DNA of 64,000 nucleotides from an uncultured Chloroflexia bacterium (GCA_963842805.1 CAWJIA010000011.1:23649-87648); one strand, 5' to 3'. Counted from the stretch's first letter, positions 21,338-42,991 are shown. Made by a program: numbers and translations. Notes: generated from the letters alone by a model not told the origin.

Positions 21338-21342
21338 GTGAT

Positions 21343-23814: not shown

Positions 23815-23879
23815 CTATAGCGGGACATGCGCTGTTTTTCACTTATTATACTATGCCGCGGGCAACTTTGGATTATACC

Positions 23880-23912: not shown

Positions 23913-23921
23913 AATTGGCTA

Positions 23922-23949
23922 TTTACATTACGATCGGGGTCGGTATAAT
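23922..23949 (+). promoter_or_regulatory. Putative pilin promoter (TTTACA-16-TATAAT)
   Basis: TTTACA 23922-23927, TATAAT 23944-23949; strong RBS aaggagg before ATG 24039. Confidence 0.45.
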
Positions 23950-24038
23950 TGAATCGTAGGACAAAAATGGGATCAGAAGATTAACGTAGCCGGTCAGGTC
24001 GATCCGGCTTGTTGAGCAGCTAATTAAGGAGGTAACTT

Positions 24039-24344
24039 ATGAAATTATTTAAATCAGCACAAAAGGGTTTTACGCTAATCGAGTTGTTGGTGGTCATTTC
24101 CATCCTGGGTGTGCTCGCCGCTGTGGTAATACTGAACGTTACCAAGTACATGAGCGCTGGTAAGGAGCAGGCTGCGGCAACCGAGCTGGCCAATGTACAG
24201 ACGGCAGTATCAGCCTATATGTATGACAACACCGGCGCCGTCCCGTCCGGTCAGGCGGCACTATCCCCCTATTTCCTGGGCTCGCCGCATGGAACCTATT
24301 CCATTGACACGTACGGCAAGGTAACCCAGACATCCTACCCGTAA
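24039..24344 (+). CDS. pilA: Type IV major pilin (prepilin-type N-terminal cleavage/methylation domain)
   Basis: 101 aa; leader MKLFKSAQKG followed by FTLIELLVVISILGVLAAVV class III signal peptide. Confidence 0.85.
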   Translation: MKLFKSAQKGFTLIELLVVISILGVLAAVVILNVTKYMSAGKEQAAATELANVQTAVSAYMYDNTGAVPSGQAALSPYFLGSPHGTYSIDTYGKVTQTSYP

Positions 24345-24373
24345 AAACAATCAGCTAACGTAATCCGGATATA

Positions 24374-24416
24374 AAAGAGAGCGTGGACTAAAATCCACGC
24401 TCTCTTTATGCTGTTT
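24374..24416. terminator. Bidirectional rho-independent terminator between pilin (+) and pilT (-)
   Basis: aaagagagcgtgga-ctaaaa-tccacgctctcttt 14-bp perfect stem, T-runs on both strands. Confidence 0.75.
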
Positions 24417-24423
24417 TCATGCT

Positions 24424-25494: not shown

Positions 25495-25528
25495 CTATGG
25501 CCTTTGGATCTCCTTGAGGTTCTGCTTT

Positions 25529-26938: not shown

Positions 26939-26953
26939 TTTTTCATGACGTTC

Positions 26954-27553
26954 TCATTGATTAGTACAAAACACCGTCAATGTAATAGTGGCCTGGTCCG
27001 GAAGCCCCTGGGCCTGAGCAGGCTGCATGGTTATATCCGTAGCTACGCTGGACGGCAAAGTTTTATCCAGGTCCCTAATGAAATTCAGAAAATTCTGGAT
27101 CCAGCCATTCATGCCCAGTGCATAAATAGTCACTGGATAGTCTGTTCCCTGTATTTGAGACGTGCCAGATGAGATGGACATGGAAGTGATGGTAATATCA
27201 TATTGAAATGCCAGGTTGATCAATTTCTGCGCTGTCTCGACGCTGTCGCAGGCATTCCCGTAAATTGCTCTCTGAGCGGCGATGTCGGAGCTTAATTTGC
27301 TTATTTCACTGTCCACGGAGGTCTGCGCAGTTAATTGCCCTTGGAGATTATTGTACTGCGTGCCCAATTCCGCCAGCCTGTTATTTAAGGCGCTCTGCCT
27401 GTAGATCTCGTCCGAGTAGGACATCGCGATGGGCACGATAGCCATCAGAAACAGGGCGCCTACTATGATCAGCCAGACGGACGTGCTCAGGCGGGGTAGC
27501 CTTTGCAACAGGCTACTCGTGGCACTTTTGGAATAATTAGCGGGTGGACGCAA
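26954..27553 (-). CDS. PilO-like pilus assembly protein (N-terminal TM, coiled coil, C-terminal domain)
   Basis: 199 aa; TM VWLIIVGALFLMAIVPIAM followed by coiled-coil RLAELGTQYNNLQGQL. Confidence 0.6.
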   Translation of the reverse strand: MRPPANYSKSATSSLLQRLPRLSTSVWLIIVGALFLMAIVPIAMSYSDEIYRQSALNNRLAELGTQYNNLQGQLTAQTSVDSEISKLSSDIAAQRAIYGNACDSVETAQKLINLAFQYDITITSMSISSGTSQIQGTDYPVTIYALGMNGWIQNFLNFIRDLDKTLPSSVATDITMQPAQAQGLPDQATITLTVFCTNQ

Positions 27554-27638
27554 TTCTATTTATTCCTACCAGCCTATTGCGCATATTATACATTAAATAA
27601 GTCTGTTTTAACCCGTCTCTCTATTTTAACAGAGTATC

Positions 27639-28889
27639 TCACTGATAATTGTAGCCAATTAAAAGGGGCGTACCACCCAGGCCTGCGCCGGGTATCTGGG
27701 TCTCCGAGTGGATGCCGCTCATGTACTTGATAATTGCGCTTCCTTGCATCGTGATGCTCTTGGCTATAACAGATCCGTACACGTAAGCGGAACCGCTCAG
27801 AGTGGCATCTGCATTGGGCGCATATATAACGGCTGCTACTTGTCCGCTGCCGCCGATAGTAACCGTAGTGCCCTGACAGATTATAAAGGGTATATTCCCT
27901 GCCACAAGGTTTGCGTTAGCGCTTCCGTCTAACGTTAGATTTCCTCCACATACAATTGTATACGCCCCATCCACTACGCCGCTATTTGCAATATGCAGGT
28001 TGCCCGTGCAATACACTGTGCCATTCAAATGGACTGTGACGCTGCCCCCTATGGTCAGGTCGCCGGTTATATAGGCCGGGCCCGGGAATGTATAAGTCCC
28101 ATAGCCCGGCACAGGGCTACTGCCGTAATGGGTGCCGGCGCTGGCCTGGTTGATGAAAGTCTGGACGTTAACAGTATATGAGACGGGGGCAGCGCTGGTC
28201 ACCGTGCTGCCGTCACACGTGCCGGTATTGCAGTTGCTGATCGTTGCCGTCCCGGTTGCCGATGCCACACCCTGCGCAGCAGTGCCTGAACCGCAGGTAT
28301 TGCAGGCAGAACAGCATGTGCCTCCTACCGTTGCACTTGGCGTTAAAGTTATATTCCCGTTGGCATAAATATTGCCATAGTTGCCGGCCTGCCTACCATC
28401 GGATAGTATATGGGCTCCGCCTGTCATCGAAAAATTACCATTGAGGCTGGCTGCTGCCTGGTTGAATATATTGTTGCCGGGCGCCGGAACCCGGATTAGC
28501 GCAATTACCTTTGCCCGGGTTTTACCGGCCGAGGCCGCGCTGGATGTAATCGTATAATTATCGTATGAGTTATCGGGAGCCCGGCTATCCGCCGCCGCTA
28601 CCGTCACCGTCATCCCGTTTATTGGATTAGGAATAGTAGGAAGATAAGTAGAAGTAATATTGTTGGGGTTTGTATTCCAGTACCAGTACAGTGCCTGGAT
28701 GCCCGAATCGGCCGCATAATAAGCCGCCATGTCCTGCTGAGCATTGGAGTTAATGGTCAGGAGTGAATACATGAACCCCAGCCCGGGCACAACTATTAAA
28801 GTTGCCGCAACAAGAAGTATCAAAGCCAGGGGCAATATCATGCCGCGCTCTTTACGGCCGATTTTTCTCAGAAACTTCTTAAATCTCAC
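27639..28889 (-). CDS. PilX_N-domain large minor pilin-like protein, Gly/Thr/Asn/Ser-rich beta-repeat body
   Basis: N-terminal hydrophobic anchor GMILPLALILLVAATLIV and AAYYAADSGIQ motif typical of PilX N-terminal domain; 416 aa. Confidence 0.6.
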   Translation of the reverse strand: MRFKKFLRKIGRKERGMILPLALILLVAATLIVVPGLGFMYSLLTINSNAQQDMAAYYAADSGIQALYWYWNTNPNNITSTYLPTIPNPINGMTVTVAAADSRAPDNSYDNYTITSSAASAGKTRAKVIALIRVPAPGNNIFNQAAASLNGNFSMTGGAHILSDGRQAGNYGNIYANGNITLTPSATVGGTCCSACNTCGSGTAAQGVASATGTATISNCNTGTCDGSTVTSAAPVSYTVNVQTFINQASAGTHYGSSPVPGYGTYTFPGPAYITGDLTIGGSVTVHLNGTVYCTGNLHIANSGVVDGAYTIVCGGNLTLDGSANANLVAGNIPFIICQGTTVTIGGSGQVAAVIYAPNADATLSGSAYVYGSVIAKSITMQGSAIIKYMSGIHSETQIPGAGLGGTPLLIGYNYQ

Positions 28890-29422
28890 AATGCACCCAA
28901 CTGCGGCGGCATCCTCTGGTAAAACTTGAATGTTATATTGTCGCTGGCATATTTATTTGTACCCAAACTTTTAGCCGCCCTTATAGTTAGTAAATATGTG
29001 TTATTCTCTGTAATCGTTGGATTGACCTTAATAAAAGAGGTACTGGCCGGGTCTATATATTGCGCGATGTATTTCCCGTTGCGCAGCAAGTTCCCATTGG
29101 TTATTCTATAGGTGACGGTGCTGCGAGTGAATGCGCTCCCGCTCCATTGATAGCAGGTCATCGAGCACAGGTTGCCTGGAGAGACGGCCGTTATATTGTC
29201 GGCGCTGGCAACGTCTTTAGCTATCGATGCTCCGGCCTGGTGGACCTGAGCCAGCACTATAGCCTGCGCCATACCGGAGCTCGTCACCCTGGTCGCCTCG
29301 CTGAATGTCAGGGCCATAACCGCGCTCGCCCCACCGATGATTGACAGGATAATAATAAGTTCAAGCAGTGTAAAACCCCTGCTCCACTTTGCAGCCGCAT
29401 TGCCCTTTTTAAAAATATTCAT
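28886..29422 (-). CDS. Minor pilin (prepilin-type N-terminal methylation domain)
   Basis: leader ...KWSRG then FTLLELIIILSIIGGASAV; ATGA overlap with upstream gene. Confidence 0.75.
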   Translation of the reverse strand: MNIFKKGNAAAKWSRGFTLLELIIILSIIGGASAVMALTFSEATRVTSSGMAQAIVLAQVHQAGASIAKDVASADNITAVSPGNLCSMTCYQWSGSAFTRSTVTYRITNGNLLRNGKYIAQYIDPASTSFIKVNPTITENNTYLLTIRAAKSLGTNKYASDNITFKFYQRMPPQLGAL

Positions 29423-29432
29423 ATTATGTAAT

Positions 29433-29903
29433 CTAATAGCCGATAATATATTCGGTCATTCCCGCCTCTTGCTTGTTATTATATTTAACGGTAACTGTCA
29501 CCTGCTGGATTTTGGGGTCGCTGTTATACGGCGATGCGCCTAGCGAAGCACCCTGCACGGTAACTGTATAGCCTGTATAACCCGGGGGAAGGCTGTTGTG
29601 AGAAGAATCCCAGGCCGGGTATCCGGGAGATCCACCCGGTATTGTATATGACCAGGGTGGCTTCCCAGCGGGTGTTCCAGCTTTGAGGATATTGGTCCAG
29701 TTGTCGCCGACAGACCTTACGTACTCCAACTCATAACGCGCCAGGCCCTCGGCTGTCATATTGGTGCGCGCAATATTATTGCCCTGGATGGTGGTATATA
29801 TACCGGCCACCAGGGTGACTCCTACAAAGCCCAGAATGGCGACGGCAACCAGGGCTTCCGCCAGGCTGACACCTCGCTCACCCCCAGCGCTTAACCACCG
29901 CAC
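29433..29903 (-). CDS. Minor pilin / pseudopilin (PilV-like)
   Basis: leader MRWLSAGGERG then VSLAEALVAVAILGFVGV. Confidence 0.65.
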   Translation of the reverse strand: MRWLSAGGERGVSLAEALVAVAILGFVGVTLVAGIYTTIQGNNIARTNMTAEGLARYELEYVRSVGDNWTNILKAGTPAGKPPWSYTIPGGSPGYPAWDSSHNSLPPGYTGYTVTVQGASLGASPYNSDPKIQQVTVTVKYNNKQEAGMTEYIIGY

Positions 29904-29907
29904 GCCT

Positions 29908-31122
29908 TTACCCTCCCCCCCCGACGACGCTGACGGCGGAGTAGATAGGCACGAAAATAGATAATGCCAGGAAGCCGACCACCAGGCCGATGGCTACGGT
30001 CATGGCAGGCTCGATCAAGCCCAGCAGCGTCTGCAGCTTGTCCGCCGCCTCAATTTCGAAGCTGTCCGAGACTACCGTCAAGGTGCTGTCGAGGTTACCC
30101 GTCTCCTCTCCCACCCTGGTCATCTCCACCATAAGCGGCAGGAAAACGTGCTTGCCCCTCATGGCCCCGGCCAGCGCCTCGCCCTTGATAATATCCTGCT
30201 CCACATCCCTGAGGGCTTGGGCGATAACCCTGTTGCCTGCCGAATCAGCTGTCAGAGTTAATATATCGGGCAGGGGCAGGCCTGACCTGAATAAGAGGGT
30301 AATGCTGCGACAGATGCGTGAAAGGGTGTTGAGCAGTATAAGCCTCCCCAACACCGGCAATCTCAATAAAAGGGCATCCTTCCGATAGGCGCCCTCAGGC
30401 GTGCGGGTGTATAGATAGCCGGCTACCCCCACTATGGCAATAGCCAACAATATGTATATGCCGTAGCTGGTGGCGAATGTAATCCCCCATATCAGTATCT
30501 GCGTGATGAGCGGCAGGTTGCCGCCCAGGTTTTTAAATACGGCCAGGATCGGCGGCAAAATAAAGGTGACCATAAGTATGGCCACCAGAATGGCCAGGAC
30601 CAGCACCACAGCGGGATAAGTTGTCGCCTGCTTGACCTTCCTCATAGCCGCCGTGGCCTGCTCGGAATAGCCGGCAAGGTTCCTCAATACGCTCTCCAAT
30701 TGGCCGGTCTGTTCGCCGACTGCAATAATCTTACAGAACATCTTGTTAAATGCCCCGGGGTGTTTTTCCAGGGCAATGGATAGCGCCAACCCTGCGCGCA
30801 GGTCGGTCACCACCTTGCCCAGCATGGCAGAAAAATTCTTATTGGCCGACTGTGCGCGCAGCAGGTCCAGGCTTTGTACGATCCCCACCCCTGACTCGAG
30901 AAGCAGGGCCAGCTGCCTGGAAAACATCACTACATCTTCCGGCTTGATTTTCGGCTGCATAAAAGAAGGCATGCCCGTGATGAAAGGGGTTATGGGCTTT
31001 ACATTAAGTATCTGGTACCCGTCGCGTAAAAGCGCGTCACCGGCGCTCTTCTCGCTGTCGGCAGTTATCCTGCCTTTTACCACCCGGCGGTCTACCGTAT
31101 ATCCGACATATTCGTATTCCAT
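29908..31122 (-). CDS. pilC: Type IV pilus inner-membrane platform protein PilC (GspF family)
   Basis: 404 aa with duplicated GspF-type domains and three TM segments. Confidence 0.85.
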   Translation of the reverse strand: MEYEYVGYTVDRRVVKGRITADSEKSAGDALLRDGYQILNVKPITPFITGMPSFMQPKIKPEDVVMFSRQLALLLESGVGIVQSLDLLRAQSANKNFSAMLGKVVTDLRAGLALSIALEKHPGAFNKMFCKIIAVGEQTGQLESVLRNLAGYSEQATAAMRKVKQATTYPAVVLVLAILVAILMVTFILPPILAVFKNLGGNLPLITQILIWGITFATSYGIYILLAIAIVGVAGYLYTRTPEGAYRKDALLLRLPVLGRLILLNTLSRICRSITLLFRSGLPLPDILTLTADSAGNRVIAQALRDVEQDIIKGEALAGAMRGKHVFLPLMVEMTRVGEETGNLDSTLTVVSDSFEIEAADKLQTLLGLIEPAMTVAIGLVVGFLALSIFVPIYSAVSVVGGGG

Positions 31123-31172
31123 ATTCCTTCTATCCGGTACTATCTGAGCAAGATGGTACCTGCATGTGCTTA

Positions 31173-32729
31173 TTAAGTGATGGAAAAGGCGTTCCTGAGG
31201 ACTTCATAGGGGGTGGTGATCCCGGCTTTGGCCTTCATCATGCCGTCTTTGGCAATAGTAACCAGGCCCTGGCTCAAGGCGGTGGCATGGATGTCCTGGT
31301 TGCCGGCGCCCGCCACGATCATGCGGCGCAGCTCATCGGTCATGGTCAATATCTCAAATATGGCGGTGCGACCCAGGTAGCCGGAATATACGCATTCCTT
31401 GCAGCCTGCGCCGTACATAAACTCCGTCCTGCTCTCGCCCATCTCCTTCTCATAAGCTATTTGCTCAACCAGCGGCGCCGTCACCTTGCGGGCGCAGTGA
31501 GGGCAGACGCGCCTTACCATCCTCTGGGCCACTATGCCTACCAATGCGGAGCTTATGAGGAACGGCTCAACGCCCAGGTCGATCAAACGGAAGAGCACCC
31601 CCACCGTCTCATTGGCGTGCACGGATGAAAGGACCAGATGCCCGGTAAGCGCCGACTGCACGGCGATCTGCGCAGTCTCGCTATCACGTATCTCACCCAC
31701 CAGGATCACATCCGGGTCCAGCCTGACGATGGAGCGCAGCCCGCCGGCAAAGGTCAGGCCCGCCTTGATATTTACCTGTATCTGATTAATATTCTCAAAG
31801 CGGTATTCGACGGGATCTTCGATGGTTATGATGTTTTTGCCCACGCTGTCCAGGGAGTTGACGGCTGCATACAGCGTTGTGGTCTTGCCGGCGCCCGTCG
31901 GGCCGCTGATCAGGACCATGCCGTAGGGCATCATCAACATCTTTTCATATTGCTCCTGGCTCTCCCTGAGAAAGCCGATCTGGGGAAGGGCCAGCGCCGC
32001 CATGGACTTATCCAGCAGCCGCAGCACACCCATCTCACCGTTGACGGTGTTGATGGTGGCCACACGCACATCGATCCGCTTGCCGGCCGCCTCGAAAGAG
32101 AACTGGCCGTCCTGCGGCCGGCGGTGGTCGGCAATATTCATGTCCGAAAGGATCTTGATGCGCGAAATCAAAGCGGTATGCACGCTCAGCGGCAGTGAGG
32201 CGACCTCATGTAAAATGCCGTCGATCCTGTAACGCACGCGCACCCTTATCTCATCCGGCTCGATATGTATGTCGGAGGCGCGTGACTTAACACCTTCCTC
32301 CAGCAGCCTGTCCAGCTGGCGCGCTATAGGTGTATCGGAAGCCTCATCCGCCATCGTGACATCGACTGACGCCTGGGCTGCGGAAGTACGATCACTACCC
32401 TTTCCTCCCTCTTTCAGCGTCCTGTAATTGTAATCAATGGCTTCCTTGATATCGGCCTCTGTGGCAGGTATCGGCTCAATCCTTTTTTTGGTATAGATCG
32501 ACAGGTTCTCTATGGTGAGTATGTCACTGGGATTGGCCATGTAGACGCGGCACGTGTTGCCGTCGAGGGATTGAGGCAGCACATTATATTTCCTGGCGAT
32601 ATCCTCGGGCACTAGTTGCAGCGCCTCCGGCATGGGCCCGTCCGACTGGACATTCAACCTAGCAATACCAGGCTTGGCCGACCCGCTGGCATTGGCCCGG
32701 CCCTTTGTTTCTTTAGAATCAGATGCCAT
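31173..32729 (-). CDS. pilB: Type IV pilus assembly ATPase PilB (GspE family)
   Basis: 518 aa; Walker A GPTGAGKTTT, tetracysteine motif CPHC...CKEC, GspE N-terminal domain. Confidence 0.9.
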   Translation of the reverse strand: MASDSKETKGRANASGSAKPGIARLNVQSDGPMPEALQLVPEDIARKYNVLPQSLDGNTCRVYMANPSDILTIENLSIYTKKRIEPIPATEADIKEAIDYNYRTLKEGGKGSDRTSAAQASVDVTMADEASDTPIARQLDRLLEEGVKSRASDIHIEPDEIRVRVRYRIDGILHEVASLPLSVHTALISRIKILSDMNIADHRRPQDGQFSFEAAGKRIDVRVATINTVNGEMGVLRLLDKSMAALALPQIGFLRESQEQYEKMLMMPYGMVLISGPTGAGKTTTLYAAVNSLDSVGKNIITIEDPVEYRFENINQIQVNIKAGLTFAGGLRSIVRLDPDVILVGEIRDSETAQIAVQSALTGHLVLSSVHANETVGVLFRLIDLGVEPFLISSALVGIVAQRMVRRVCPHCARKVTAPLVEQIAYEKEMGESRTEFMYGAGCKECVYSGYLGRTAIFEILTMTDELRRMIVAGAGNQDIHATALSQGLVTIAKDGMMKAKAGITTPYEVLRNAFSIT

Positions 32730-32756
32730 CTTAGCCTCGCTTGCTTAAAATAGGCC

Positions 32757-34118
32757 TTAACCTAAAGCGTCCGCCTTCTCGACATTTATGATTTTAATCT
32801 TCTGCTGGTCGGCGAATTGCTGGGCCTCTTTGGCCAGACCCGGCGAAGCCAGCAGTATCTTATCGTGGATTCCGATATCATAGGCCTTGGTATCATAGGC
32901 GGATACGGCTTCCAGACCGACCCCCTTGGGGTCCGCCAGGATGCCGATGGATATGGTATGCGTGAACAGGCCGTCGTCGTAATACGCGATGATATCCATG
33001 GTATATTCAGCGCCCGAGCGGCCGCGTATCCTGGCTTTTTCCTCCGTCCTGTAGCCCTGTTCGTGCAGGTATTTCAACAACTGTTTGCGGCTTTCAAATT
33101 TGAACGGCTTTTTATTCACGTTGCCCGGCAAGTTATCACCTGCACCCTTTAAGAATGTCTCCAGTTCGTCGGCATTGAACGATTTGATGCGCTGCCTCTG
33201 GGCAAATTGCCTGGCCTCGCTGTTTAGCCCGGGCATGGCCAGCAGGATCTTATCATGTATACCCAGGTCATAGGCCTTGTTATCGAACCTGAATACGTCT
33301 TCGAGGCCGATATTTTCCGAGTTGTGCCCGATGGCTATGCCGATGCCCAGGATAAAGGTCAGGAAGCCGTCGTCACGCTCGGCCAGCATATCCAGCACAT
33401 GCGTGACGCCCGAACCGGACCCGCTGCTCGCCCTGGCCTTTTCAAATACCTTATAGCCCTGCTGTTCCAGGTAGGTGATAAACTTGGACTTGAAGCCCAT
33501 ATCGAATGTAAGCCAGTTCCTGCTCTGCTCGTTTAAAATGTAGGAGTTAATGGTCTGGACTTTAGCTTCTTCATCGGAGAAGAAGATGGAGCACTTAAGG
33601 CACTGCCACTTCATGGTGATCTCGGTGGACAGGCCGCCGCAACTCTGGCACTTATAATTCACTCCCAAGCTGCGGTAATCAGTCCCCAGGAATTTAAGCG
33701 GCTTCTTACAATGCGGGCAAACATATTTCCCGCCGGCGATAAACTCCTGTTCCAACCCGTTCTTTCCGCAGGCGAAGTGCTCCAGTATCCTCCCCTTGGC
33801 AACATTGCCCGACCCGCATTTAGGGCACCTCAAGCTGGGCCTCAAATTCATGGAATTACATACGGGGCAGAAGATCAGGCGCTCATAGAAGCGCCCTTCC
33901 AGCATGCGCTCTTGCACCAGGCTGTCCAGTATTTTTATAACCTCTTCCGAGGTCTTGCCCAGCGTCGCTTCAACCTGGGGATACACCGCGCCGGACTGCC
34001 TGGTGAAGTCGATAACCGGACGTATCTCCTCAATACGGCCTTCGATCATATCGTTGATAAGCTGCAGCACCTTGGGATCATGGGTTGCCGTTTGAGAAGA
34101 TTCTAATATCTCAATCAT
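32757..34118 (-). CDS. Uncharacterised lead gene of pilus operon: three CxxC zinc-ribbon pairs and a tandem-duplicated ~95-aa C-terminal domain
   Basis: 453 aa; CPVCNS...CPKCGS, CPHCKK...CQSCGG, CLKCS; repeats GYKVFEKARASSGSGSGVTHVLDMLAERDDGFLTFILGIGIA...DKILLAMPGLNSEARQFAQRQRIK and GYRTEEKARIRGRSGAEYTMDIIAYYDDGLFTHTISIGIL...DKILLASPGLAKEAQQFADQQKIK. Confidence 0.5.
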   Translation of the reverse strand: MIEILESSQTATHDPKVLQLINDMIEGRIEEIRPVIDFTRQSGAVYPQVEATLGKTSEEVIKILDSLVQERMLEGRFYERLIFCPVCNSMNLRPSLRCPKCGSGNVAKGRILEHFACGKNGLEQEFIAGGKYVCPHCKKPLKFLGTDYRSLGVNYKCQSCGGLSTEITMKWQCLKCSIFFSDEEAKVQTINSYILNEQSRNWLTFDMGFKSKFITYLEQQGYKVFEKARASSGSGSGVTHVLDMLAERDDGFLTFILGIGIAIGHNSENIGLEDVFRFDNKAYDLGIHDKILLAMPGLNSEARQFAQRQRIKSFNADELETFLKGAGDNLPGNVNKKPFKFESRKQLLKYLHEQGYRTEEKARIRGRSGAEYTMDIIAYYDDGLFTHTISIGILADPKGVGLEAVSAYDTKAYDIGIHDKILLASPGLAKEAQQFADQQKIKIINVEKADALG

Positions 34119-34421
34119 TTCTTTCCCCGCATATGCAAGCGCATAAATTGCTCATATATAAAATCGGCCACAGCTTGCTTCAAGAGCAAACAGCCGGCCC
34201 CCATGTTCGAGCTTGTTGATAATAGCTATGGCCTGCCCTGTGTTTTCACTGCATTTCAGATTCATTTAGCTTAATCTAGCATGCGATTTCGTATTTTGCA
34301 AATATCTCATTGTTTATGGTAGATTTCGACTAACTCTAATATAAATGAATTCCTGCCAAAAACTGTGCTGCTCTAGTACCAGGGACTAAAGTCCTATGTA
34401 TGATAAACTTGGCTACCGCAT

Positions 34422-37400
34422 ATGGTTATGCTTCTTTTACTGGTCCTGAGCATTTTAGATATATGTTCGTTCTGCCCGGCCGCCCATGCCGACAATACCA
34501 GTGGCAGGACGCTGACCTGGTCGGTGGTCAAGACACCGATTAACAATGGCCCCGACAACGTAATCTGCAGCCCTGGCGAGATCAACTCCATGGCCCTGGG
34601 CAACGGCGTGATCTATTGCGCCGATACGGCCAACAGCAGGCTGTTCCGCTCCGTGAACGGAGGATACAGCTTCACCGATATAAGCAGCGATCTTGCTGCC
34701 GCCGGGGCGAATTTACCGGTCTGGTCGGTGGCCGTAGCCCCGGATGATCCGAAATTTGTAGTGGTTGTCACCTTCACTACACTACCGTTGCCACCCAATC
34801 CAGGGCCTCAGCAGGTCTATGTATCCATCGATGGGGGAAACAACTGGCAAAATACGGGCCCTACAATTAACGGGGCAGGACCAGCTACAGACAAGATTGG
34901 AACAGACGAATATATAAGCTGCATAGACATATCCAGGTCATATGGCGCGTATCGCGATATCGCCATCGGCACACGCACCACTACAGCGACTACAGGAACC
35001 GGACAGGTATTAAATCTTAAGTACGGCTCTGCCGGTACGGGATGGTCTTCGCAGCCAGTCTTAACTGCAGCCATAACATCCCTTAAATTCTCCCCCAACT
35101 ACGGGTCGGATTCGACGCTGGCAGTTATCACGTGCAATCCTACTTCACCATTCCTCAACCTGGGGCAGCATGATACAACCACCAACTCCACGATCTGGAA
35201 TACACCGTATGGCGCTTACCCTATCCCGCTCGCCCCTGCGGCTTCAGGTGTGGTTCCAGGTGTGGTGATAGGAACCGACCTATCACTGCCGTCCGATTTC
35301 AACGCACAGAACCCCGCCCTGATGGGCTGTTTCGCCAGCATCCAATCCGACACAGCGTTCCAAGATTTTATGGGCAGGACCACTCAGACGGGTGTCTTTT
35401 ATATAAATACCTCTATCGGCGCCACGCCATTCACTATAACCCCCCCGCCGGTGGTCCCCCCGGGACTCCCACCGGGACGCCGCATTTACTCGATTGCCTA
35501 CAACGGCAGTGAGGCCAGTGGCATCCTGCTGGCTGGCGAGGCCACGGCCGACCCGGCTACCGCCATGGTCCCCGTCTATCAAAGCTCCAATGCCCAGTCG
35601 TTCAGCCCGGGTGCCGCCACCTGGACCAGCTCGCAGGACTATAACGATTATAAGTCGCCCACGGGCGGCGGGAATTCGGGCCGCGCCAACGCCATACTGG
35701 GCTGGGGCTATAACGGCGTTCCCTATTGCGCTACCAGCTCTGAAAACGACATTACAGGTGGAACAGCATGGGCAGTGGGTCAATGGCCTTTTTCAAAATC
35801 GCTTGGAGTCCCTCTTGATGAATCCGCCTTTTCATATAGCTCCAACGGCGGGCTGAGCTGGAACCAGATCGGCCTGATAGATACCAGCATCGATCAACTG
35901 TCCGATTCGGCCGCCCTTGAAGCTCCGCCCGATGCCACCCAGAGCAGCGTGCTCTACCTGTCTTCCCTTAATAAAAAGGGCGCGCCCAATAGCTTCGACA
36001 GCGTGTGGCGCTCTACCAGCGATACGCTGGGGGATCAATGGGAACGCATCCTGACCCGCACGACCAGTGACAGCGGAACGATCTTGCGTGTGAACGATAA
36101 GACGCCCGGTTCCACTGCCCTGATCCTGGGGGACCTGACCACGCCCAATATCATGTATACAGCAGATGAGGGCCAGAAATGGGAAACGGTATTTGCCGGA
36201 ATATCGTCCCTGCGCGATATCGCATTTAGGGATGAATCGACCATCTACGTACTTGAGGATTACCGGGTAAGGCAACTATCCATGGGAGACACCAACTGGG
36301 TGCCGGGGCAATTCGTCAACACGGATTTGCTGATACCCGCACATACCATATGTACCCCGCTGGTCAACCCTACCAGCGCAGATCTAGTCTTCGTAGGCTC
36401 AGGCATCTACACACTGGGAAACCCCGAGGCCTATGTAGCCTGGACCGATTTTTCTCAACCTTCGCCTAAATTCACCGCACTTAAAATGCTGCCGCAGAGC
36501 GGCAACGTGCATGTTATCGCGGACAGCAAGTACGACCAGAACAATATGATCTATGCGGCGGTAAACACTGATTTTAAGCCCAGCAGCGAGGGGGTTATTT
36601 ACAGGTGGACTGTAGGCACAAGCACTGACTGGGATGAACTGGAGCCGCTCAACCGCGCCTTTTTTGGGATCGCCATGGCCGGCGATGTGCTTTATGGCTC
36701 CTGGAACTTTGACACCACCACGCTACAGAACAGCGGGGGCGTGGACCGTACGCTCTCTCCCAGGGTCAAAGTGCCCCCGGCGCCCGATTGGGATGAGCTG
36801 AAAGACGGCCTCCCCATACCGCCCGCTATTAATTATCCCGTCGTCTTCACCCGCGAACCCACATCGCTCAAAATCTCCTCCAATACCAATAATACGCTGT
36901 GGTCAATCGATAACAGTGCAAATCCTTACAACTACGATAATAAGATAGGCTGCCTCTGGCAATTCATCGATTCGGTAGCCAGGGTAAGCCCCTGGCCCAC
37001 TGCGCCGCCCTCCGGCAGCTTCATCGGGGTGGATCCGGTGACGGGCAGGTCTCAACAGATTGATATTAAGTGGCGGCAACTGAAAGATGTCTTCGGTTAC
37101 GACCTGCTGATAGCCAAAGATGTGAATTTTACGACGCTTCTATCGGAGAACGCCACGAAGATTTTCAATATGGTCACGGTTGATAGCAAGACGGGTGCGT
37201 GGGTCATAGGGTGGGACAAGATGACGGGTAAGTGGATAGCGACGCTCGACCAATCACAGCAGTTGTCGCCGGGCGTATGGATACCCCCCGGTATATTGGA
37301 AGCCGGCCAGCCATACTACTGGAAAGTGAGGGGCAGCCGCAGCATAACTGGCGCCGCCATTCACAGCCTGTGGTCGCCGGTCATGTTTTTCTCGGTCAAA

Positions 37401-37835
37401 CCGGGTTTCGCTGTGAGGAGCAGCGTAAGCGGTCCCCAGCTCCTGGCACCCATCGACGGCGTCTGCCGGGACTGCCAGCCTACCGTCGGCTTTAGCTGGA
37501 CACCCGTTAAAAATGCCAAAAAATATGAATTCACCCTGGCTTATGATCAGGACCTCAAAAACGTAATTGTTCAGACTGTTACGACCACGACTGCATATAA
37601 ATATGAGGACCGGCTCGAGCCGGGCAGAATTTATTTCTGGCAGGTGAAAGCTGTGGCGCCGTTTGAAAGCGATCCCAGCCCTACAGGCACTTTCGTCATA
37701 GCCGGCAGCCGGCCCGTAATGCCCCTGGAGTCCCTGCCCCCGTCCTACCTGTGGATAGCTGTAATCATAGCCACGACCGTCATACTGGTTTTGATCATCG
37801 TCATATTCTTTTACAATTATATGCGCAGGTATTAA
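34422..37835 (+). CDS. BNR/Asp-box repeat cell-surface protein with signal peptide and C-terminal TM anchor (S-layer-like)
   Basis: 1137 aa; signal peptide MVMLLLLVLSILDICSFCPAAHA; Asp-box motifs SVNGGYSF, SIDGGNNW, SSNGGLSW, TADEGQKW; C-terminal LWIAVIIATTVILVLIIVIFFY + RRY. Confidence 0.7.
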   Translation: MVMLLLLVLSILDICSFCPAAHADNTSGRTLTWSVVKTPINNGPDNVICSPGEINSMALGNGVIYCADTANSRLFRSVNGGYSFTDISSDLAAAGANLPVWSVAVAPDDPKFVVVVTFTTLPLPPNPGPQQVYVSIDGGNNWQNTGPTINGAGPATDKIGTDEYISCIDISRSYGAYRDIAIGTRTTTATTGTGQVLNLKYGSAGTGWSSQPVLTAAITSLKFSPNYGSDSTLAVITCNPTSPFLNLGQHDTTTNSTIWNTPYGAYPIPLAPAASGVVPGVVIGTDLSLPSDFNAQNPALMGCFASIQSDTAFQDFMGRTTQTGVFYINTSIGATPFTITPPPVVPPGLPPGRRIYSIAYNGSEASGILLAGEATADPATAMVPVYQSSNAQSFSPGAATWTSSQDYNDYKSPTGGGNSGRANAILGWGYNGVPYCATSSENDITGGTAWAVGQWPFSKSLGVPLDESAFSYSSNGGLSWNQIGLIDTSIDQLSDSAALEAPPDATQSSVLYLSSLNKKGAPNSFDSVWRSTSDTLGDQWERILTRTTSDSGTILRVNDKTPGSTALILGDLTTPNIMYTADEGQKWETVFAGISSLRDIAFRDESTIYVLEDYRVRQLSMGDTNWVPGQFVNTDLLIPAHTICTPLVNPTSADLVFVGSGIYTLGNPEAYVAWTDFSQPSPKFTALKMLPQSGNVHVIADSKYDQNNMIYAAVNTDFKPSSEGVIYRWTVGTSTDWDELEPLNRAFFGIAMAGDVLYGSWNFDTTTLQNSGGVDRTLSPRVKVPPAPDWDELKDGLPIPPAINYPVVFTREPTSLKISSNTNNTLWSIDNSANPYNYDNKIGCLWQFIDSVARVSPWPTAPPSGSFIGVDPVTGRSQQIDIKWRQLKDVFGYDLLIAKDVNFTTLLSENATKIFNMVTVDSKTGAWVIGWDKMTGKWIATLDQSQQLSPGVWIPPGILEAGQPYYWKVRGSRSITGAAIHSLWSPVMFFSVKPGFAVRSSVSGPQLLAPIDGVCRDCQPTVGFSWTPVKNAKKYEFTLAYDQDLKNVIVQTVTTTTAYKYEDRLEPGRIYFWQVKAVAPFESDPSPTGTFVIAGSRPVMPLESLPPSYLWIAVIIATTVILVLIIVIFFYNYMRRY

Positions 37836-37871
37836 ACCGTATATGTCCGTATTTTCGGGTGGTTTTAAGTT

Positions 37872-38528
37872 ATGGATACAGAGAAATCCGCTTTTGCATT
37901 TGCATCACAGGTGAAAGGATACCTGGCCGAGGACGAGGGGCAATGCCTCTTCAGGCTGGCACTGGAGGCATCCGCCTCAGGCCCCTGTCTGGAGATAGGC
38001 AGTTTCTGTGGCAAGTCCACCGTCTATTTAGGCGCAGCCTGTAAAATCAAGGGCGTTACGCTTTTTACCATAGACCATCACCGCGGTTCGGAGGAGCAGC
38101 AGCCGGGGCAACTCTACTTCGATCCTGAGATCTACGATGAGAAGAAGCAGGAAATAGACAGTTTCCCCATCCTGAGAGCCACTTTAAAAAAAGCGGGGCT
38201 GGAAGATACGGTAGTGCCTATGGTTACATGGTCCAGGGTGGCAGCCAGGAATTGGTCCACACCGCTCAGCCTAGTATTCATCGACGGCGGCCATAGTTAT
38301 GAAACTGCCCTATCGGACTATAACTGCTGGAACCCTCACCTGGCGCCGGGCGGCTACCTGATTTTCCACGATATTTACCTGGATCCTTCGAAGGGCGGTC
38401 AGGCGCCCTACGAAGTGTATAAAAAAGCCGTCAAGAGCGGCAACTATGAGGAGCTGCCCATGGTAAATACGCTGGGGATACTAAAGAAGAGCGGCCCCAT
38501 GGTGATCGAAAAGAAGGTTTGTTGCTGA
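37872..38528 (+). CDS. Class I SAM-dependent O-methyltransferase-like protein
   Basis: 218 aa; SAM motif I LEIGSFCGKSTVYLG, motif FIDGGHSYE typical of Methyltransf_24/TylF-like enzymes. Confidence 0.6.
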   Translation: MDTEKSAFAFASQVKGYLAEDEGQCLFRLALEASASGPCLEIGSFCGKSTVYLGAACKIKGVTLFTIDHHRGSEEQQPGQLYFDPEIYDEKKQEIDSFPILRATLKKAGLEDTVVPMVTWSRVAARNWSTPLSLVFIDGGHSYETALSDYNCWNPHLAPGGYLIFHDIYLDPSKGGQAPYEVYKKAVKSGNYEELPMVNTLGILKKSGPMVIEKKVCC

Positions 38529-39542
38529 TTCCCGGTTGAGCATATCCGCCGCCAGAATAACTGCGGCGGCCGTCCAGGTCGGCTTCTCCAGCGGCCATAT
38601 CTCATTTTCCGGATAAGCCACGCCGTACCAGTAGGCTCCGTCATCATCACGAAGGTGGTGTATCCAGTTGTAGACCATCGCAGCCTGCCGGTATTCCCCG
38701 TGCACCGCCAGGGAAATGGCCAGTTCGCTAGTTTCGGCAGCTGTGACCCACTGCTTTTCAAGGTTGCACACCGATCCTTTGCCATGCACTATGAATTTGT
38801 CCCAGCTATCATAAATGCGGCTGATCGCTTCACGCCCGTTGATGACGCTGCACAATGCGGGATAATACCAGTCCATGGCAAACGCTGATAGGCTGTCGCC
38901 TTCGGACTTTGCAACGTAAGGCAAAGGCATTCTCAAGATTGCTGAGCGCAATACGTTATTTGCTTCCCGCCAGTCGCGGCGGTCTTCGCCCATAAGTTCT
39001 GCCATCTTTAAAGCGCATCTGATGCTTAAATAAGAAGAACTGCAGCTGGTAATCTGCGCTGATGGATACAAAATGTCATCGGCATCCCTGGCCCAGTATA
39101 TTTCCCCATGGGGGCCGCGCATCCCGAGAATATAGTCTACGGCTCTTCGCACGCTTGGCCACATCCTGTCGACAAAACGAACATCGTCATTAATAAGATA
39201 ATGGTGCCAGATGCCCACGGCAATATAAGAGATAGCGTGCGACACCTTGTACATGTCTTTGGGCAATCCGTTCCTGTAATTGGCATACCAGCTCCCATCT
39301 GGAAGCTGGACATTGGCCAGCCACTCGTAGGCTTTTTCCGCTTCGTCGTGGAAACTGCCGGCGTCGATGGCCATGGCGCACTCTATATGGGTCCACGGTT
39401 CTACGATGCCGCCCTCCAGTTCCGGCACGGCGCCCCCCTGTTCCTGCACGCTGACTATGCCCTCCAGCGTGGGGTTCAGGAACTGCCGGGACAATTGATT
39501 TTCCGTGCCGGATGCATCAAGAGTGCTGCTGTTTATGCTCAT
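38481..39542 (-). CDS. Prenyltransferase/squalene-oxidase-repeat (alpha/alpha-toroid) protein
   Basis: QLPDGSWYANY and RDDDGAYWYGVAY match QxxDGGW repeat; start chosen at MSINSS (39542) to avoid overlap with upstream GT; 48-bp convergent overlap with methyltransferase 3' end. Confidence 0.5.
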   Translation of the reverse strand: MSINSSTLDASGTENQLSRQFLNPTLEGIVSVQEQGGAVPELEGGIVEPWTHIECAMAIDAGSFHDEAEKAYEWLANVQLPDGSWYANYRNGLPKDMYKVSHAISYIAVGIWHHYLINDDVRFVDRMWPSVRRAVDYILGMRGPHGEIYWARDADDILYPSAQITSCSSSYLSIRCALKMAELMGEDRRDWREANNVLRSAILRMPLPYVAKSEGDSLSAFAMDWYYPALCSVINGREAISRIYDSWDKFIVHGKGSVCNLEKQWVTAAETSELAISLAVHGEYRQAAMVYNWIHHLRDDDGAYWYGVAYPENEIWPLEKPTWTAAAVILAADMLNRESATNLLFDHHGAALL

Positions 39543-39549
39543 AGTAGTT

Positions 39550-40800
39550 TTAAACCCCGGCGTGAGCGGCCTGTAGCTCCACTGCCTCCCTGTAATAGTC
39601 GGCCGTTTGCCTGGCCGTATTTTCCCAGTTAAATAATCTCCCGACCCTTTCAACCCCCATCCTGCCTAGCTGCCTGCGTTTGTTTGCATCATCCAGCAAC
39701 GAAGTGACGGCGCCGACTATTGCCCCTGTATCGCCGGGTGGTATCAGGATGCCGGCATCACCCACAACCTCGGGCAAAGCTCCCGCAGTAGTCGATATCA
39801 CCGGGGTGCCGCAGGCCATAGCTTCGGCTGCCGGCAATCCGAAACCCTCGTAAATCGAAGGGACAACCAGCATAGCGGCGGTGGAATAATGGCTGACCAG
39901 CTCATCGGTATCAATTTTGCCCGTATATGTGGCACAGTCCTCAAGCTGCAGCGACCTTATCAGCCCCTGCGTATAGCCGTTCTTCATGGGCTGCCCGACT
40001 ATGGTCAACCCGATGTTTCTTGTTTTACGCAGTTCGGCAACAGCCTCCATTAAATACTTTAAACCCTTTAACGGCGTGTCGCCGCTGTTGATTACCAGTA
40101 TTCTATTATCCGATCTAACCGAACCCGGCGCTTCCTTGAAAGTCTCTCGGTCCACACCACAGTAGATTATCTTGAATTTATCAGAAGTAAGACCGAAGCT
40201 CTGCGCTATTTCATCCAGCGAATTCTGCGAATCCGTGATGAAGTGTGACAACTGGCCGGCTACCTTGATCTGAGTGTCGCAGAAGGCATACCAGCGGCGT
40301 ATACCCAGGGTTCGGATGAAAGAGCGTGATGCTTTAAGCGCCAGCTCCCGGTCAATAGTTATGGGATGGTGAATGGTGGTAACCATAGGCATTCCCATCT
40401 GCCTGATCTTTAATATCCCCTCTGTAATGCACTGGTTGTCATGCACGATATCATATTTCTTCGAATGTCCGTTCTGGCGGAACATATCGTGGGCACGCAT
40501 CCCGAAGGTCATCGGCTCGGTAAAGAAGCCGCCGCATTCTCCGATCCACTCCACAAAGTTAGGCCAGGTATTTAACAGTAGTGGATTGATAAAATAACGT
40601 CTGATCTCTGGGTATCTATAAAGGTCCAGGCTGGGAAGCTTGATTAGCCTGATGCCGTCTGCAAGTTCCGGATAGGGCGGTCCGGCCACCACATCCACCT
40701 CATGTCCCAGGTCCCGCAGAGACTGGCTGAGATATTTTACATATACTCCCTGTCCGCCGGAGTATTTATATGCCCGGTAACTGAGTAAACACACGCGCAT
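39550..40800 (-). CDS. Glycosyltransferase family 4 (GT-B, group 1)
   Basis: 416 aa; N-terminal SYRAYKYSGGQGVYVKYLSQSLRDLGHEVDVV; C-terminal EGFGLPAAEAMACGTPVISTTAGALPEVV (E-x7-E GT4 motif). Confidence 0.8.
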   Translation of the reverse strand: MRVCLLSYRAYKYSGGQGVYVKYLSQSLRDLGHEVDVVAGPPYPELADGIRLIKLPSLDLYRYPEIRRYFINPLLLNTWPNFVEWIGECGGFFTEPMTFGMRAHDMFRQNGHSKKYDIVHDNQCITEGILKIRQMGMPMVTTIHHPITIDRELALKASRSFIRTLGIRRWYAFCDTQIKVAGQLSHFITDSQNSLDEIAQSFGLTSDKFKIIYCGVDRETFKEAPGSVRSDNRILVINSGDTPLKGLKYLMEAVAELRKTRNIGLTIVGQPMKNGYTQGLIRSLQLEDCATYTGKIDTDELVSHYSTAAMLVVPSIYEGFGLPAAEAMACGTPVISTTAGALPEVVGDAGILIPPGDTGAIVGAVTSLLDDANKRRQLGRMGVERVGRLFNWENTARQTADYYREAVELQAAHAGV

Positions 40801-40915
40801 CGGATATCCGCCAACCTCGTTTTATTAATAATCATGCCCAAGGCACCCGAACATTTTACATGTAATTAACCAGTTAATCAATACTGGAACAAATTGGAGC
40901 GTATATTACAGACCC

Positions 40916-42148
40916 TTATTCCCTGCCTTTGATAGCTTCGAGGTATATATCGGCTGTACGTTTGGCTGCGTTCTTCCAGTTGAAATTATCCAGGATGCGC
41001 CGACGGCCCAGCGAGCTATATTCCAGCCTTTTGACAGGATCAGCGACCATGCGAGCAATGGCCAAGGCCAGCGCTGCGGAATCGGCGGGTGGCACCAGTA
41101 TCCCGGCGTCACCTACCACCTCTGGCAATGCCCCGGCTGTGGTGGATACCACTGGCGCGCCGCATGACATGGCTTCGGCTGCCGGTATCCCAAACCCTTC
41201 GTAGGTGGAGGGCACAGCCACCAGTGTTGCCGACCTGTAGAGGTCTATCAGCTCATCGGTGTCGATCCGGTCGCGGAAGGTTACATTGGCGGTGACACCC
41301 AACCTCTCCATAAGCTTCTCCGTCAGGCCGTCTCCCATGGTCCTGCCCACTACCACAAGTTTTAAATCGTATTTTTTCCTCAATTCGGCCAGGGCTTCCA
41401 GCAGGAAGCGCAGGCCTTTGACGGCAGTGTCACGGCTCATCACCATCAATATCATGTTTTCCAGCCGTTTTACGCTTTCCGAAGGGCTGAAGAGCCCGGT
41501 ATCGATGCCGTTGTAAATCACTCTGAGATTGTCCTCAGGCACCTTGAAGACCTCGTGAATATGCTGTTTGGCCATCTCCGAGACGGTGATAATATAAGGC
41601 AATTGCTTCGCAACCTTCATCTGCATGCCGGTGAAGGAAAACCAGCGCCGGTAGCCCAGCTTGTCTTTAATCGATTTCGCCGAGCTGATGGCCAGATCGC
41701 GATCCTTGGTGACCGGATGATGAATGGTTTCCACGACGGGATAGCCGGCCTTTTGTATGTCGACTATCCCGTAGGACAGTGTCTGGTTGTCGTGTATCAC
41801 GTCGTAGAGCTTTTTACTGTCGCGGCAGAGGTACTGGTAGGCGCGCATGCCGAAGGTCAGAGGCTCTGAGAAATAGCCGGTCACGGTGCCACCCCACTCT
41901 ACGAAGTTGGCATAGGTATTGAGCTTGCGAGGGTCTATAAAAAGCCTCTGAACGGATGTCATCGAATACAGATCGAGGCTGGGCAGCTTTATCAGCCCTA
42001 CGCCTTCATCCACGATGGGATAAGGAGGCCCCGACATGAGGTCTACTTCGTGCCCCAGGTCCCGCAGGGCATTGCTCAAATAGCGCATGTAAATGCCCTG
42101 GCCGCCTGAATAGGGGTAGCTGCGATAGCTTAAAATGCAAATCCGCAT
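40916..42148 (-). CDS. Glycosyltransferase family 4, tandem paralog of preceding gene
   Basis: 410 aa; ~55-60% identical to 39550-40800 product (MRICILSYRSYPYSGGQGIYMRYLSNALRDLGHEVDLMSGPPYP..., EGFGIPAAEAMSCGAPVVSTTAGALPEVV). Confidence 0.8.
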   Translation of the reverse strand: MRICILSYRSYPYSGGQGIYMRYLSNALRDLGHEVDLMSGPPYPIVDEGVGLIKLPSLDLYSMTSVQRLFIDPRKLNTYANFVEWGGTVTGYFSEPLTFGMRAYQYLCRDSKKLYDVIHDNQTLSYGIVDIQKAGYPVVETIHHPVTKDRDLAISSAKSIKDKLGYRRWFSFTGMQMKVAKQLPYIITVSEMAKQHIHEVFKVPEDNLRVIYNGIDTGLFSPSESVKRLENMILMVMSRDTAVKGLRFLLEALAELRKKYDLKLVVVGRTMGDGLTEKLMERLGVTANVTFRDRIDTDELIDLYRSATLVAVPSTYEGFGIPAAEAMSCGAPVVSTTAGALPEVVGDAGILVPPADSAALALAIARMVADPVKRLEYSSLGRRRILDNFNWKNAAKRTADIYLEAIKGRE

Positions 42149-42244: not shown

Positions 42245-42991
42245 CTATTTAGCCTTGCCCTGGTTGGCCACGGCGCTGGTAGCTTTCTCCAGCTCCTCGG
42301 CGCTGGCCAGGTAATAGCTTTTCAACTTTTTCAGGTTGGAGTCCACCTCGTAGACCAGCGGGATGCCGGTGGGAATATTAAGGCCGACTATATCCTGATT
42401 GGAGACATTATCAAGATATTTCACCAGCGCCCGCAGACTGTTGCCGTGAGCGGAAATTATGACCCGTTTGCCTGATTTTACCGCCGGCGCAATAGAAGTA
42501 TGCCAGTAGGGAAGGCAGCGTCTGTAGGTATCCTTCAGGCTCTCCGAAAGGGGTATTTGATCCAGTTTCAGGTCAGCGTACCTCGGTTCACGGCCCGGGT
42601 AGCGCTCATCCTTCTTATCAAGTGCCGGGGGCGGGATATCGTAGCTTCGCCGCCAGACCAACACCTGGTCTTCGCCGTACTTACGGGCCGTCTCGGACTT
42701 ATTCAAGCCCTGCAGCGCGCCGTAGTGCCTCTCATTCAGACGCCATGAATTTTTCACCGGTATCCACATCAGGTCCAGCTCATCCAGTGCGATCCAGAGC
42801 GTCCTGATGGCCCGCTTCAGCACAGATGTGAATGCAAGGTCGAATACATATCCCTGCTGGCGTAATACCCTGCCAGCCTTGGCGGCCTCCTTAATACCCT
42901 TATCTGAAAGGTCTACGTCGGTCCAGCCGGTGAACCTGTTCTCACTATTCCACACGCTTTCACCGTGCCGCAGCAAAACCAGCTTGATCAT
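42245..42991 (-). CDS. gpmA: 2,3-bisphosphoglycerate-dependent phosphoglycerate mutase
   Basis: [12 protein letters not shown] phosphohistidine motif, [12 protein letters not shown], 248 aa. Confidence 0.9.

Follow-up and report, generated by a model that had tools for sequence, protein, structure and literature searches.

Does a gene for a large surface protein that stands beside a methyltransferase gene and two glycosyltransferase genes form one module with them, or do two separate units adjoin? This question is raised by positions 34422-42148 of a 64,000-nucleotide stretch of DNA from an uncultured Chloroflexia bacterium (the whole 64-kb stretch is called the window below). The original prediction had placed here a surface-layer (S-layer) candidate of 1137 amino acids (aa) with BNR/Asp-box motifs, followed by a putative glycosylation module. 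Open reading frame (ORF) calling on the window gave five real ORFs in this interval, each exactly where it had been placed; the G+C content across the region was unremarkable. The five genes probably belong to two functionally separate units: (i) an envelope protein of the family of DET1407, a putative S-layer protein of Dehalococcoides, and (ii) a cytoplasmic pathway that resembles, as a variant, the methylmannose polysaccharide (MMP) pathway of mycobacteria. Unrelated units lying side by side are also the simplest reading of the locus. The coordinates of all features are collected in Table 1.

Support for the S-layer reading of the 1137-aa protein comes only from homology to the Dehalococcoides candidate. 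DET1407 has been described as an S-layer biomarker and, in strains 195 and FL2, as one of the most abundant proteins (PMC6646388; PMC5102406). A DET1407-type gene was retrieved by scanning metagenomes with a degenerate back-translated peptide pattern (AGII[PD][AV]P[TA]TA..DA.K), which gave a single match, locus L080. The 1001-aa protein encoded there holds verbatim all three strain-195 DET1407/Q3Z6N3 peptides (YFGNQWNQTALCK, AGIIPAPTTASDAYK, and VAYGTTTGTETTATTLK). Other routes to the gene were unproductive. The back-translated FL2 peptide FYDVGILEWNADK had no match in the metagenome scan, and the published D. mccartyi peptides were absent from the 357 proteins and 79 loci that had been fetched. 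Six published peptides, concatenated and run through a word-index protein search, found no match either, though the gene exists in the metagenome collection, and a metagenome-assembled genome (MAG) labelled 'Dehalococcoides mccartyi' (L010) did not lead to DET1407.

The search against the Dehalococcoides S-layer protein, which had been suggested together with the S-layer reading, revealed remote homology over the full length when profiles were compared. The family profile was aligned to the DET1407-type protein by hhalign with a probability of 99.5% (E = 1.8e-22; 891 columns; residues 18-1113 vs 12-999) and was matched by hmmsearch with E = 1.2e-32 over positions 11-568 and 913-1068 of the hidden Markov model; none of 200 shuffles was significant. 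Along this alignment the two proteins, both from Dehalococcoidia, are collinear and share a signal peptide, an Asp-box propeller region, fibronectin type III/immunoglobulin-like (FN3/Ig-like) domains with a Y-Y-W-R-V motif, a transmembrane anchor, and a basic tail. They also differ in several respects. Their identity is ~22%, the window protein is 136 aa longer, and its Asp-boxes are more decayed (one canonical vs three). No Pfam fn3 or BNR match reached threshold in the window protein, whereas the DET1407-type protein has five Asp-boxes as well as fn3 and Ig-like hits. Finally, the window gene lies beside a type IV pilus cluster and the D. mccartyi gene beside rho.

Several points weigh against equating the 1137-aa protein with DET1407 or with an S-layer subunit. 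The literature itself calls the S-layer role of DET1407 putative, and the signal peptide of the 1137-aa protein has no basic n-region. Pairwise BLASTP to the DET1407-type protein was weak (best E = 2e-5, covering only the C-terminal Ig-like domain and the transmembrane anchor), so that the link rests on profiles. Moreover, the best match of the DET1407-type protein among the fetched loci was a different family member that is not linked to pilus genes, and genomes carry several paralogues, some of them in tandem, which bears on the question of which one forms the layer. In view of the last two observations, the sequence comparisons establish homology and a shared architecture but not orthology to DET1407. 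Rfam models did not reveal the riboswitch described for the region ahead of the S-layer gene in D. mccartyi (PMC5102406); they gave no match in the window at gathering threshold, in positions 34000-34500 at E <= 1, or in L080 at E <= 0.1.

A word-index search found 271 homologues of the 1137-aa protein. The 120 homologues listed were full-length or partial, mostly 1000-1250 aa long, and carried only Dehalococcoidia or Chloroflexi source names. An exhaustive search yielded 1587 related cluster representatives at E <= 1e-3, and 156 stretches of species-representative genomes encode relatives, often several per genome. Judged by sequence, both the 1137-aa protein and DET1407 are members of a large family specific to Dehalococcoidia. 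Tandem pairs or dispersed paralogues within one genome were seen at L023, L036, L070, and L077, and as the pairs L001 with L033 and L030 with L076. Such paralogues indicate that the family has diversified within single Dehalococcoidia genomes, and a model with a single S-layer protein may oversimplify. In the closest public locus (L001, a fen-derived 'Dehalococcoidia bacterium' MAG), the flanking proteins are 91-95% identical to those of the window, the 1137-aa protein only ~70%. If correct, the assignment would turn a single putative Dehalococcoides protein into a class-wide family with a confident structure model and a link to pilus genes, and would provide concrete envelope targets in a group without peptidoglycan.

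The topology of the 1137-aa protein matches that of the DET1407 family, with an N-terminal export signal and a single C-terminal transmembrane anchor (type I). Hydropathy analysis detected exactly two hydrophobic segments, aa 1-23 (MVMLLLLVLSILDICSFCPAAHA, followed by D, with an A-x-A site) and aa 1104-1135. An in-frame stop at 34404, 18 nt upstream, rules out a longer N-terminus. While a signal-peptide-like N-terminus and the C-terminal anchor were found, the claim of multiple S-x-D-G-G-x-x-W motifs was overstated, as one canonical and three degenerate motifs are present. Relaxed matching detected four Asp-boxes where 0.22 were expected from shuffles. In an alignment of 66 homologues, all four fall in columns whose consensus is S-x-D-x-G-x-T-W, in which a W or G is invariant. 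Because they occupy conserved columns of the family, we regard these sites as genuine Asp-boxes that have decayed in the 1137-aa protein.

An AlphaFold2 model built on the 66-sequence alignment had a mean pLDDT (predicted local distance difference test) of 85.7 and a pTM (predicted template modelling score) of 0.80. In model and alignment, a BNR/Asp-box propeller region is followed by FN3/Ig-like domains, which is the domain order of the DET1407 family. Both Ig/FN3-like sandwiches carry an L-E-x-G-x-x-Y-[YF]-W-x-V-[RK] motif, and homologues gave weak Ig_Rha78A_N and fn3 Pfam matches in the Ig-like region. A structure search with the model returned seven-bladed propellers, the best of which were non-enzymatic; the top structural matches listed included neither a sialidase nor a GH74 enzyme nor a solved S-layer protein. 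The best Foldseek matches were tandem-propeller ectodomains ending in Ig-like domains, such as the periplasmic sensor domain of BT4663, a Bacteroides hybrid two-component system (4A2L/4A2M), and PorZ (5M11). With these the model has in common the fold class, that is, two propellers followed by Ig-like domains. Unlike them, it has another membrane topology and no signalling domains; no sequence relationship was detectable, and TM-scores were ~0.2-0.3. As modelled, the likeness to the ectodomains of BT4663 and PorZ is one of fold only.

These comparisons also bear on the possibility that the protein is a membrane-anchored BNR-propeller glycoside hydrolase (a GH33 sialidase or a GH74-like enzyme), which we consider extremely improbable. 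The Asp-boxes would fit this reading, as would the weak matches to Sortilin-Vps10 and an 'F510_1955 family glycosylhydrolase' model and the name 'exo-alpha-sialidase' that NCBI's automatic annotation gives to one homologue. However, the scores lie far under curated cut-offs (19.9 vs 33 bits and 23.6 vs 175 bits), Sortilin-Vps10 being the only Pfam match of the protein and remaining below threshold. There was no BNR_2 (sialidase propeller) match at E <= 0.01 and no R-I-P/FRIP motif, the modelled propellers have seven blades and not six, the best structural matches are non-enzymatic propellers, and a PDB profile search gave similarity only at the level of Asp-boxes. Closest homologues of the sialidase type, which would have spoken against an S-layer role, were looked for and did not appear.

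The 1137-aa protein is most likely a structural envelope or S-layer subunit. It would be exported by the Sec pathway, lose its cleavable N-terminal signal, and remain at the cell surface as a type-I membrane-anchored protein. Some ~820 residues of propeller (two seven-bladed units with the four decayed Asp-boxes) would be followed by the Ig/FN3-like pair as a stalk and then by the transmembrane helix, such that the propellers could form the outer sheet, with the Ig domains and the helix serving as membrane tether. Homology, architecture, and topology were computed; lattice formation and abundance we infer. The proposed subunit would act in a lineage without peptidoglycan. Loss of peptidoglycan has been reported in this part of Dehalococcoidia, where the S-layer constitutes the wall (PMC10284905), and the reduced dcw cluster of the window, which has no mur genes, fits this report.

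The conserved neighbour of the 1137-aa gene is a divergent type IV pilus cluster. It adjoins the orthologue in 14 Dehalococcoidia loci, with identities of the 1137-aa protein as low as 27-40%; every one of the 10 closer orthologues with enough upstream flank shows this arrangement. At the end next to the 1137-aa gene, the cluster encodes PilC, PilB, and a TackOD1+Mrr_cat protein; it further comprises genes for a prepilin peptidase, an 823-aa polytopic protein, a PilT-like ATPase, a PilM/N fusion, a DUF7305/adhesive-domain protein, and three small ORFs. The intergenic region presumably holds divergent promoters; consensus promoter and terminator scans performed no better than shuffles. The TackOD1+Mrr_cat gene lies immediately upstream of pilB, a position that is kept in many loci.

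Given this neighbourhood, the 1137-aa protein might be an accessory of the type IV pilus (a surface adhesin, a propeller associated with the pilus, or a conduit or anchor for it in the envelope) and not a lattice subunit. The divergent arrangement with TackOD1/Mrr-pilB-pilC in the loci just counted is what such a role would predict, as is the fact that the downstream side of the gene varies while the pilus side stays. We nevertheless regard a pilus accessory as unlikely, since the D. mccartyi family member adjoins rho and unrelated genes and is among the most abundant proteins there, and many paralogues are not linked to pilus genes. Adjacency may, furthermore, mean shared regulation of envelope components and not a physical complex. 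The structural envelope or S-layer subunit thus remains our preferred reading of the 1137-aa protein.

The identity of the other four genes was settled by a search against the sequences of solved structures (PDB). Their matches were M. hassiacum enzymes of the MMP cluster: (i) the 218-aa protein matched the 1-O-methyltransferase MeT1 (6G7D; E = 4e-55, 43% identity over 203 residues, 6-208 vs 9-211); (ii) the 353-aa protein matched the methylmannose polysaccharide hydrolase MmpH (7QSJ; E = 2.7e-84, 41% over residues 12-345); and the alpha-(1->4)-mannosyltransferase ManT (7QSG) was matched by (iii) GT4 copy a (E = 8.8e-96, full length, 41%) and (iv) GT4 copy b (E = 5.6e-91, 41%). The next best solved GT4 enzyme scored only 113 bits, compared with 324 for ManT. 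The two GT4 copies are 49% identical to each other. No hydrophobic segment was found by hydropathy in any of the four proteins.

Pfam agreed with the S-adenosylmethionine (SAM) methyltransferase (Methyltransf_24) and the two GT4 proteins of the original prediction, whereas its 'prenyltransferase-repeat protein' had to be abandoned. This 353-aa protein had no Pfam family at E <= 0.01, and terpene cyclases were reached only at E 0.007-0.4 over ~40 residues; its match to MmpH leaves the prenyltransferase label without support. NCBIfam provided no specific name for any of the four proteins and a weak GH15-type match for the 353-aa protein, which was first read as a glucoamylase or trehalase of family GH15 until the match to MmpH replaced this reading. 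An alternative upstream TTG start at 39653 would lengthen the same protein to 390 aa. Beside the GT4 genes lies a histidine-phosphatase gene; a function as sugar-phosphate phosphatase was weighed and dismissed, as the gene is that of ordinary GpmA (428 bits vs a cut-off of 305).

In M. hassiacum, the MMP cluster has the order manT-pmeT3-mmpH-meT1 (MHAS_04402-04405) and is found in non-tuberculous mycobacteria; its product is a cytoplasmic 11-14-mer of alpha-1,4-linked 3-O-methylmannose made by self-recycling (PMC9883506). In this cycle, MmpH cuts mature chains, ManT re-elongates the fragments from GDP-mannose, and MeT1 caps the new reducing ends by methylating their 1-OH. The window resembles this system in having full-length ManT, MmpH, and MeT1 homologues clustered, all of them soluble, and in its gene order, manT-manT-mmpH-meT1. 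It differs by the second ManT paralogue in the place of pMeT3, a putative 3-O-methyltransferase, and by the inversion of meT1, which is convergent with mmpH and overlaps it tail-to-tail by 48 bp (38481-38528), whereas the mycobacterial pair is listed consecutively. The host also differs, belonging to an anaerobic Chloroflexota (Dehalococcoidia) lineage and not to the actinobacteria. In eight related loci the four genes keep this order and orientation; the window's own MeT1-like and MmpH-like proteins had no match in the contig index.

When residues with roles assigned in PMC9883506 were mapped by alignment, ManT residues Gly15, His142, Lys240, Glu313, Gly314, Phe315, and Glu321 were conserved in both GT4 copies. 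In the MmpH-like protein, the catalytic base Glu262 was conserved, as were Glu265, Trp49, Thr163, Met215, Tyr219, and Trp315. Other observations weigh against an unmodified MMP pathway. The putative guanine-contacting Asp293 of ManT aligns to Thr, with Asp on either side. The MmpH acid candidates are altered (Asp47 to Glu, Asp50 to Thr), and so are the pocket residues Asn101 (to His) and Phe102 (to Ala), the latter being part of a hydrophobic environment proposed to accommodate the mannose unit at the adjacent subsite (PMC9883506). The ORFs of 70 aa or more in the window include no pMeT3 homologue; the other methyltransferase domains among them are TrmD and RsmH only. Since pMeT3 is absent from the window, we filed the gene set as an MMP-like variant and not as a canonical MMP cluster.

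These departures could also mean that ManT, MmpH, and MeT1 have altered specificities and that the four genes make another soluble glycan, such as a glucan or a compatible-solute-primed oligosaccharide. In favour of this are the identity of only 41-43% to the mycobacterial enzymes, the substitutions at four pocket or acid positions of MmpH and at Asp293 of ManT, the lack of pMeT3, and the duplication of ManT. The donor specificity of GT4 enzymes is, in general, hard to read from sequence. We hold this alternative to be rather unlikely, however. Three distinct MMP enzyme types occur together in one conserved cluster, and the best solved relative of each enzyme is by far its MMP counterpart. M. 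hassiacum ManT is itself only 53% identical to its S. griseus homologue, from a maker of a related MMP, and less than 35% identical to other mycobacterial mannosyltransferases.

By analogy with the mycobacterial enzymes, the most likely product of the four genes is a soluble cytoplasmic alpha-1,4-mannooligosaccharide or polysaccharide and not an S-layer glycan; donor, linkage, and product are those that we infer from the homologues. The absence of pMeT3 from the window and the four changed MmpH pocket and acid residues suggest that 3-O-methylation of the polymer may be sparse or lacking. Priming, or a distinct elongation step, could fall to the second ManT copy, which stands in pMeT3's place in the gene order. 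We propose, only tentatively, that anaerobic Dehalococcoidia without peptidoglycan make an intracellular alpha-1,4-mannan-type glycan through an MMP variant with two ManT copies and no pMeT3, in which the extra ManT provides priming.

Are the two units nevertheless linked? Glycosylation or methylation of the surface layer, as first suggested for the enzyme genes, gained no support, as the four proteins are full-length homologues of cytoplasmic MMP enzymes. A role in building a lipid-linked glycan fared no better, with no hydrophobic segments in the four proteins and three of the four genes on the opposite strand. 'Directly downstream' applies to the methyltransferase gene alone, which begins 36 bp after the stop of the 1137-aa gene on the same strand; the MmpH-like gene and both GT4 genes, on the minus strand, run towards the 1137-aa gene.

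S-layer proteins are often glycosylated, and a gene set that builds or modifies a glycan, lipid-linked or attached directly, to decorate the S-layer protein would account for the adjacency of the genes, which is kept in eight close relatives, and for the position of the methyltransferase gene. Even so, this function is very unlikely. All four proteins are soluble and homologous to enzymes that act on free cytoplasmic oligomannosides (PMC9883506), and no initiating polyprenyl-phosphate transferase, flippase, or oligosaccharyltransferase is encoded in 34422-42148. The four-gene set travels with the 1137-aa gene in close relatives only; more distant orthologues lack it in their flanks, and their downstream genes are unrelated to one another. 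N-x-S/T sequons are not enriched in the 1137-aa protein either (7 vs 10.5 +/- 2.8 in shuffles).

The main caveat to a division into two units is co-transcription of the MeT1-like gene with the 1137-aa gene. No convincing terminator was found between them (hairpin fold z-score 0.14), which, together with the 36-bp gap, makes co-transcription possible and weighs against strict separation. A more speculative reading of this tight spacing is that glycan synthesis may be co-regulated with envelope growth. As regards glycosylation by other genes, the 823-aa protein of the pilus cluster has a Wzy_C-like match (E = 2.5e-4, under the cut-off) and would be a better candidate than the GT4 genes if any gene of the window glycosylates pilin or surface proteins.

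To our knowledge, descriptions of methylmannose polysaccharides and of ManT, MmpH, and MeT1 are confined to mycobacteria and a small number of further actinobacteria. These polysaccharides are thought to buffer fatty-acyl-CoA and to aid growth in the cold. The MMP paper discusses homologues in Actinobacteria only (PMC9883506), and a limited open-access full-text search found no report of methylmannose with Dehalococcoidia or of polymethylated polysaccharide with Chloroflexi. The MMP-like variant, if true, would be the first system of the polymethylated-polysaccharide type outside Actinobacteria, and its extra ManT would account for de novo priming, a step for which mycobacteria have no known enzyme. 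It would also test how widespread such polysaccharides are and what role they have without mycobacterial lipid metabolism. For annotation, the locus illustrates how labels as general as 'GT4' or 'SAM methyltransferase', when they stand beside a surface protein, suggest a glycosylation function that the specific homologies contradict.

Table 1. Features of the locus and its surroundings, given in window coordinates except for the last row (coordinates of L080)
Feature	Position	Strand	Basis or remark
1137-aa membrane-anchored surface protein, DET1407 (Dehalococcoides putative S-layer) family	34422..37835	+	uninterrupted ORF, homologues, profile homology, structure model
Signal-peptide-like N-terminus, aa 1-23, A-H-A/D cleavage-type site	34422..34490	+	hydropathy; model helix 2-16, low-confidence linker 16-27
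All-beta region, aa 33-850, read as a pair of seven-bladed beta-propellers	34518..36971	+	model
Degenerate Asp-box 1, SVNGGYSF, aa 77-84	34650..34673	+	family consensus there S-T-D-G-G-V-T-W
Canonical Asp-box 2, SIDGGNNW, aa 135-142	34824..34847	+	G139, W142 invariant in 66 sequences
Degenerate Asp-box 3, SSNGGLSW, aa 473-480, then family signature WNQ[IL]GLIDT	35838..35861	+	W480 invariant
Degenerate Asp-box 4, TADEGQKW, aa 580-587	36159..36182	+	W587 invariant
Ig/FN3-like domain 1, aa 858-995, disordered insert ~aa 910-947, carries LEAGQPYYWKVR motif	36993..37406	+	model; aligns to DET1407-type FN3/Ig region
Ig/FN3-like domain 2, aa 1007-1093, carries LEPGRIYFWQVK motif	37440..37700	+	model; alignment to DET1407-type
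C-terminal transmembrane anchor (aa ~1105-1130) and short basic cytoplasmic tail ...YNYMRRY	37734..37832	+	hydropathy, model helix 1108-1136, alignment to DET1407-type anchor
MeT1-like SAM-dependent methyltransferase, 218 aa	37872..38528	+	Pfam Methyltransf_24 E 1e-24; PDB 6G7D
MmpH-like (alpha/alpha)6-barrel endo-alpha-mannosidase homologue, 353 aa from ATG	38481..39542	-	PDB 7QSJ
ManT-like GT4 glycosyltransferase copy a, 416 aa	39550..40800	-	Pfam GT4 domains; PDB 7QSG
ManT-like GT4 glycosyltransferase copy b, 410 aa	40916..42148	-	Pfam GT4; PDB 7QSG
GpmA phosphoglycerate mutase, next gene after the GT4 pair	42245-42991		NCBIfam
Intergenic region between divergent TackOD1/Mrr-pilB-pilC cluster and 1137-aa gene	34119..34421	.	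sequence reading
Type IV pilus-like cluster, complete, divergent from 1137-aa gene	20552-34118	-	Pfam
TackOD1 ('thaumarchaeal output domain 1', E 3.5e-38) + Mrr_cat restriction-endonuclease-fold protein	32757-34118	-	Pfam
pilB-type T2SSE ATPase	31173-32729	-	Pfam
pilC-type T2SSF	29908-31122	-	Pfam
101-aa N_methyl pilin	24039-24344	+	Pfam
823-aa protein: many hydrophobic segments, weak Wzy_C (O-antigen ligase/PglL-type) match, C-terminal TPR repeats	21343-23814	-	
Reduced dcw cluster mraZ-rsmH-ftsA-ftsZ	11638-15601	+	no mur, ftsW or ftsI between them
DET1407-type gene in L080 (Ga0228535_1000170), strain-195-like Dehalococcoides	2274-5279	-	directly downstream of rho, not near pilus genes

Elsewhere in the window, a 587-aa protein (5242-7005, plus strand) has a weak CARDB (cell-adhesion-related) match and is possibly another surface protein. 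Three tandem glycyl-radical enzymes (PFL-like; 805, 832, and 813 aa) are encoded at 52811-62361 on the plus strand and share one radical-SAM activase (56483-57406); their genes are preceded by that of a 397-aa protein with two TetR_N domains.

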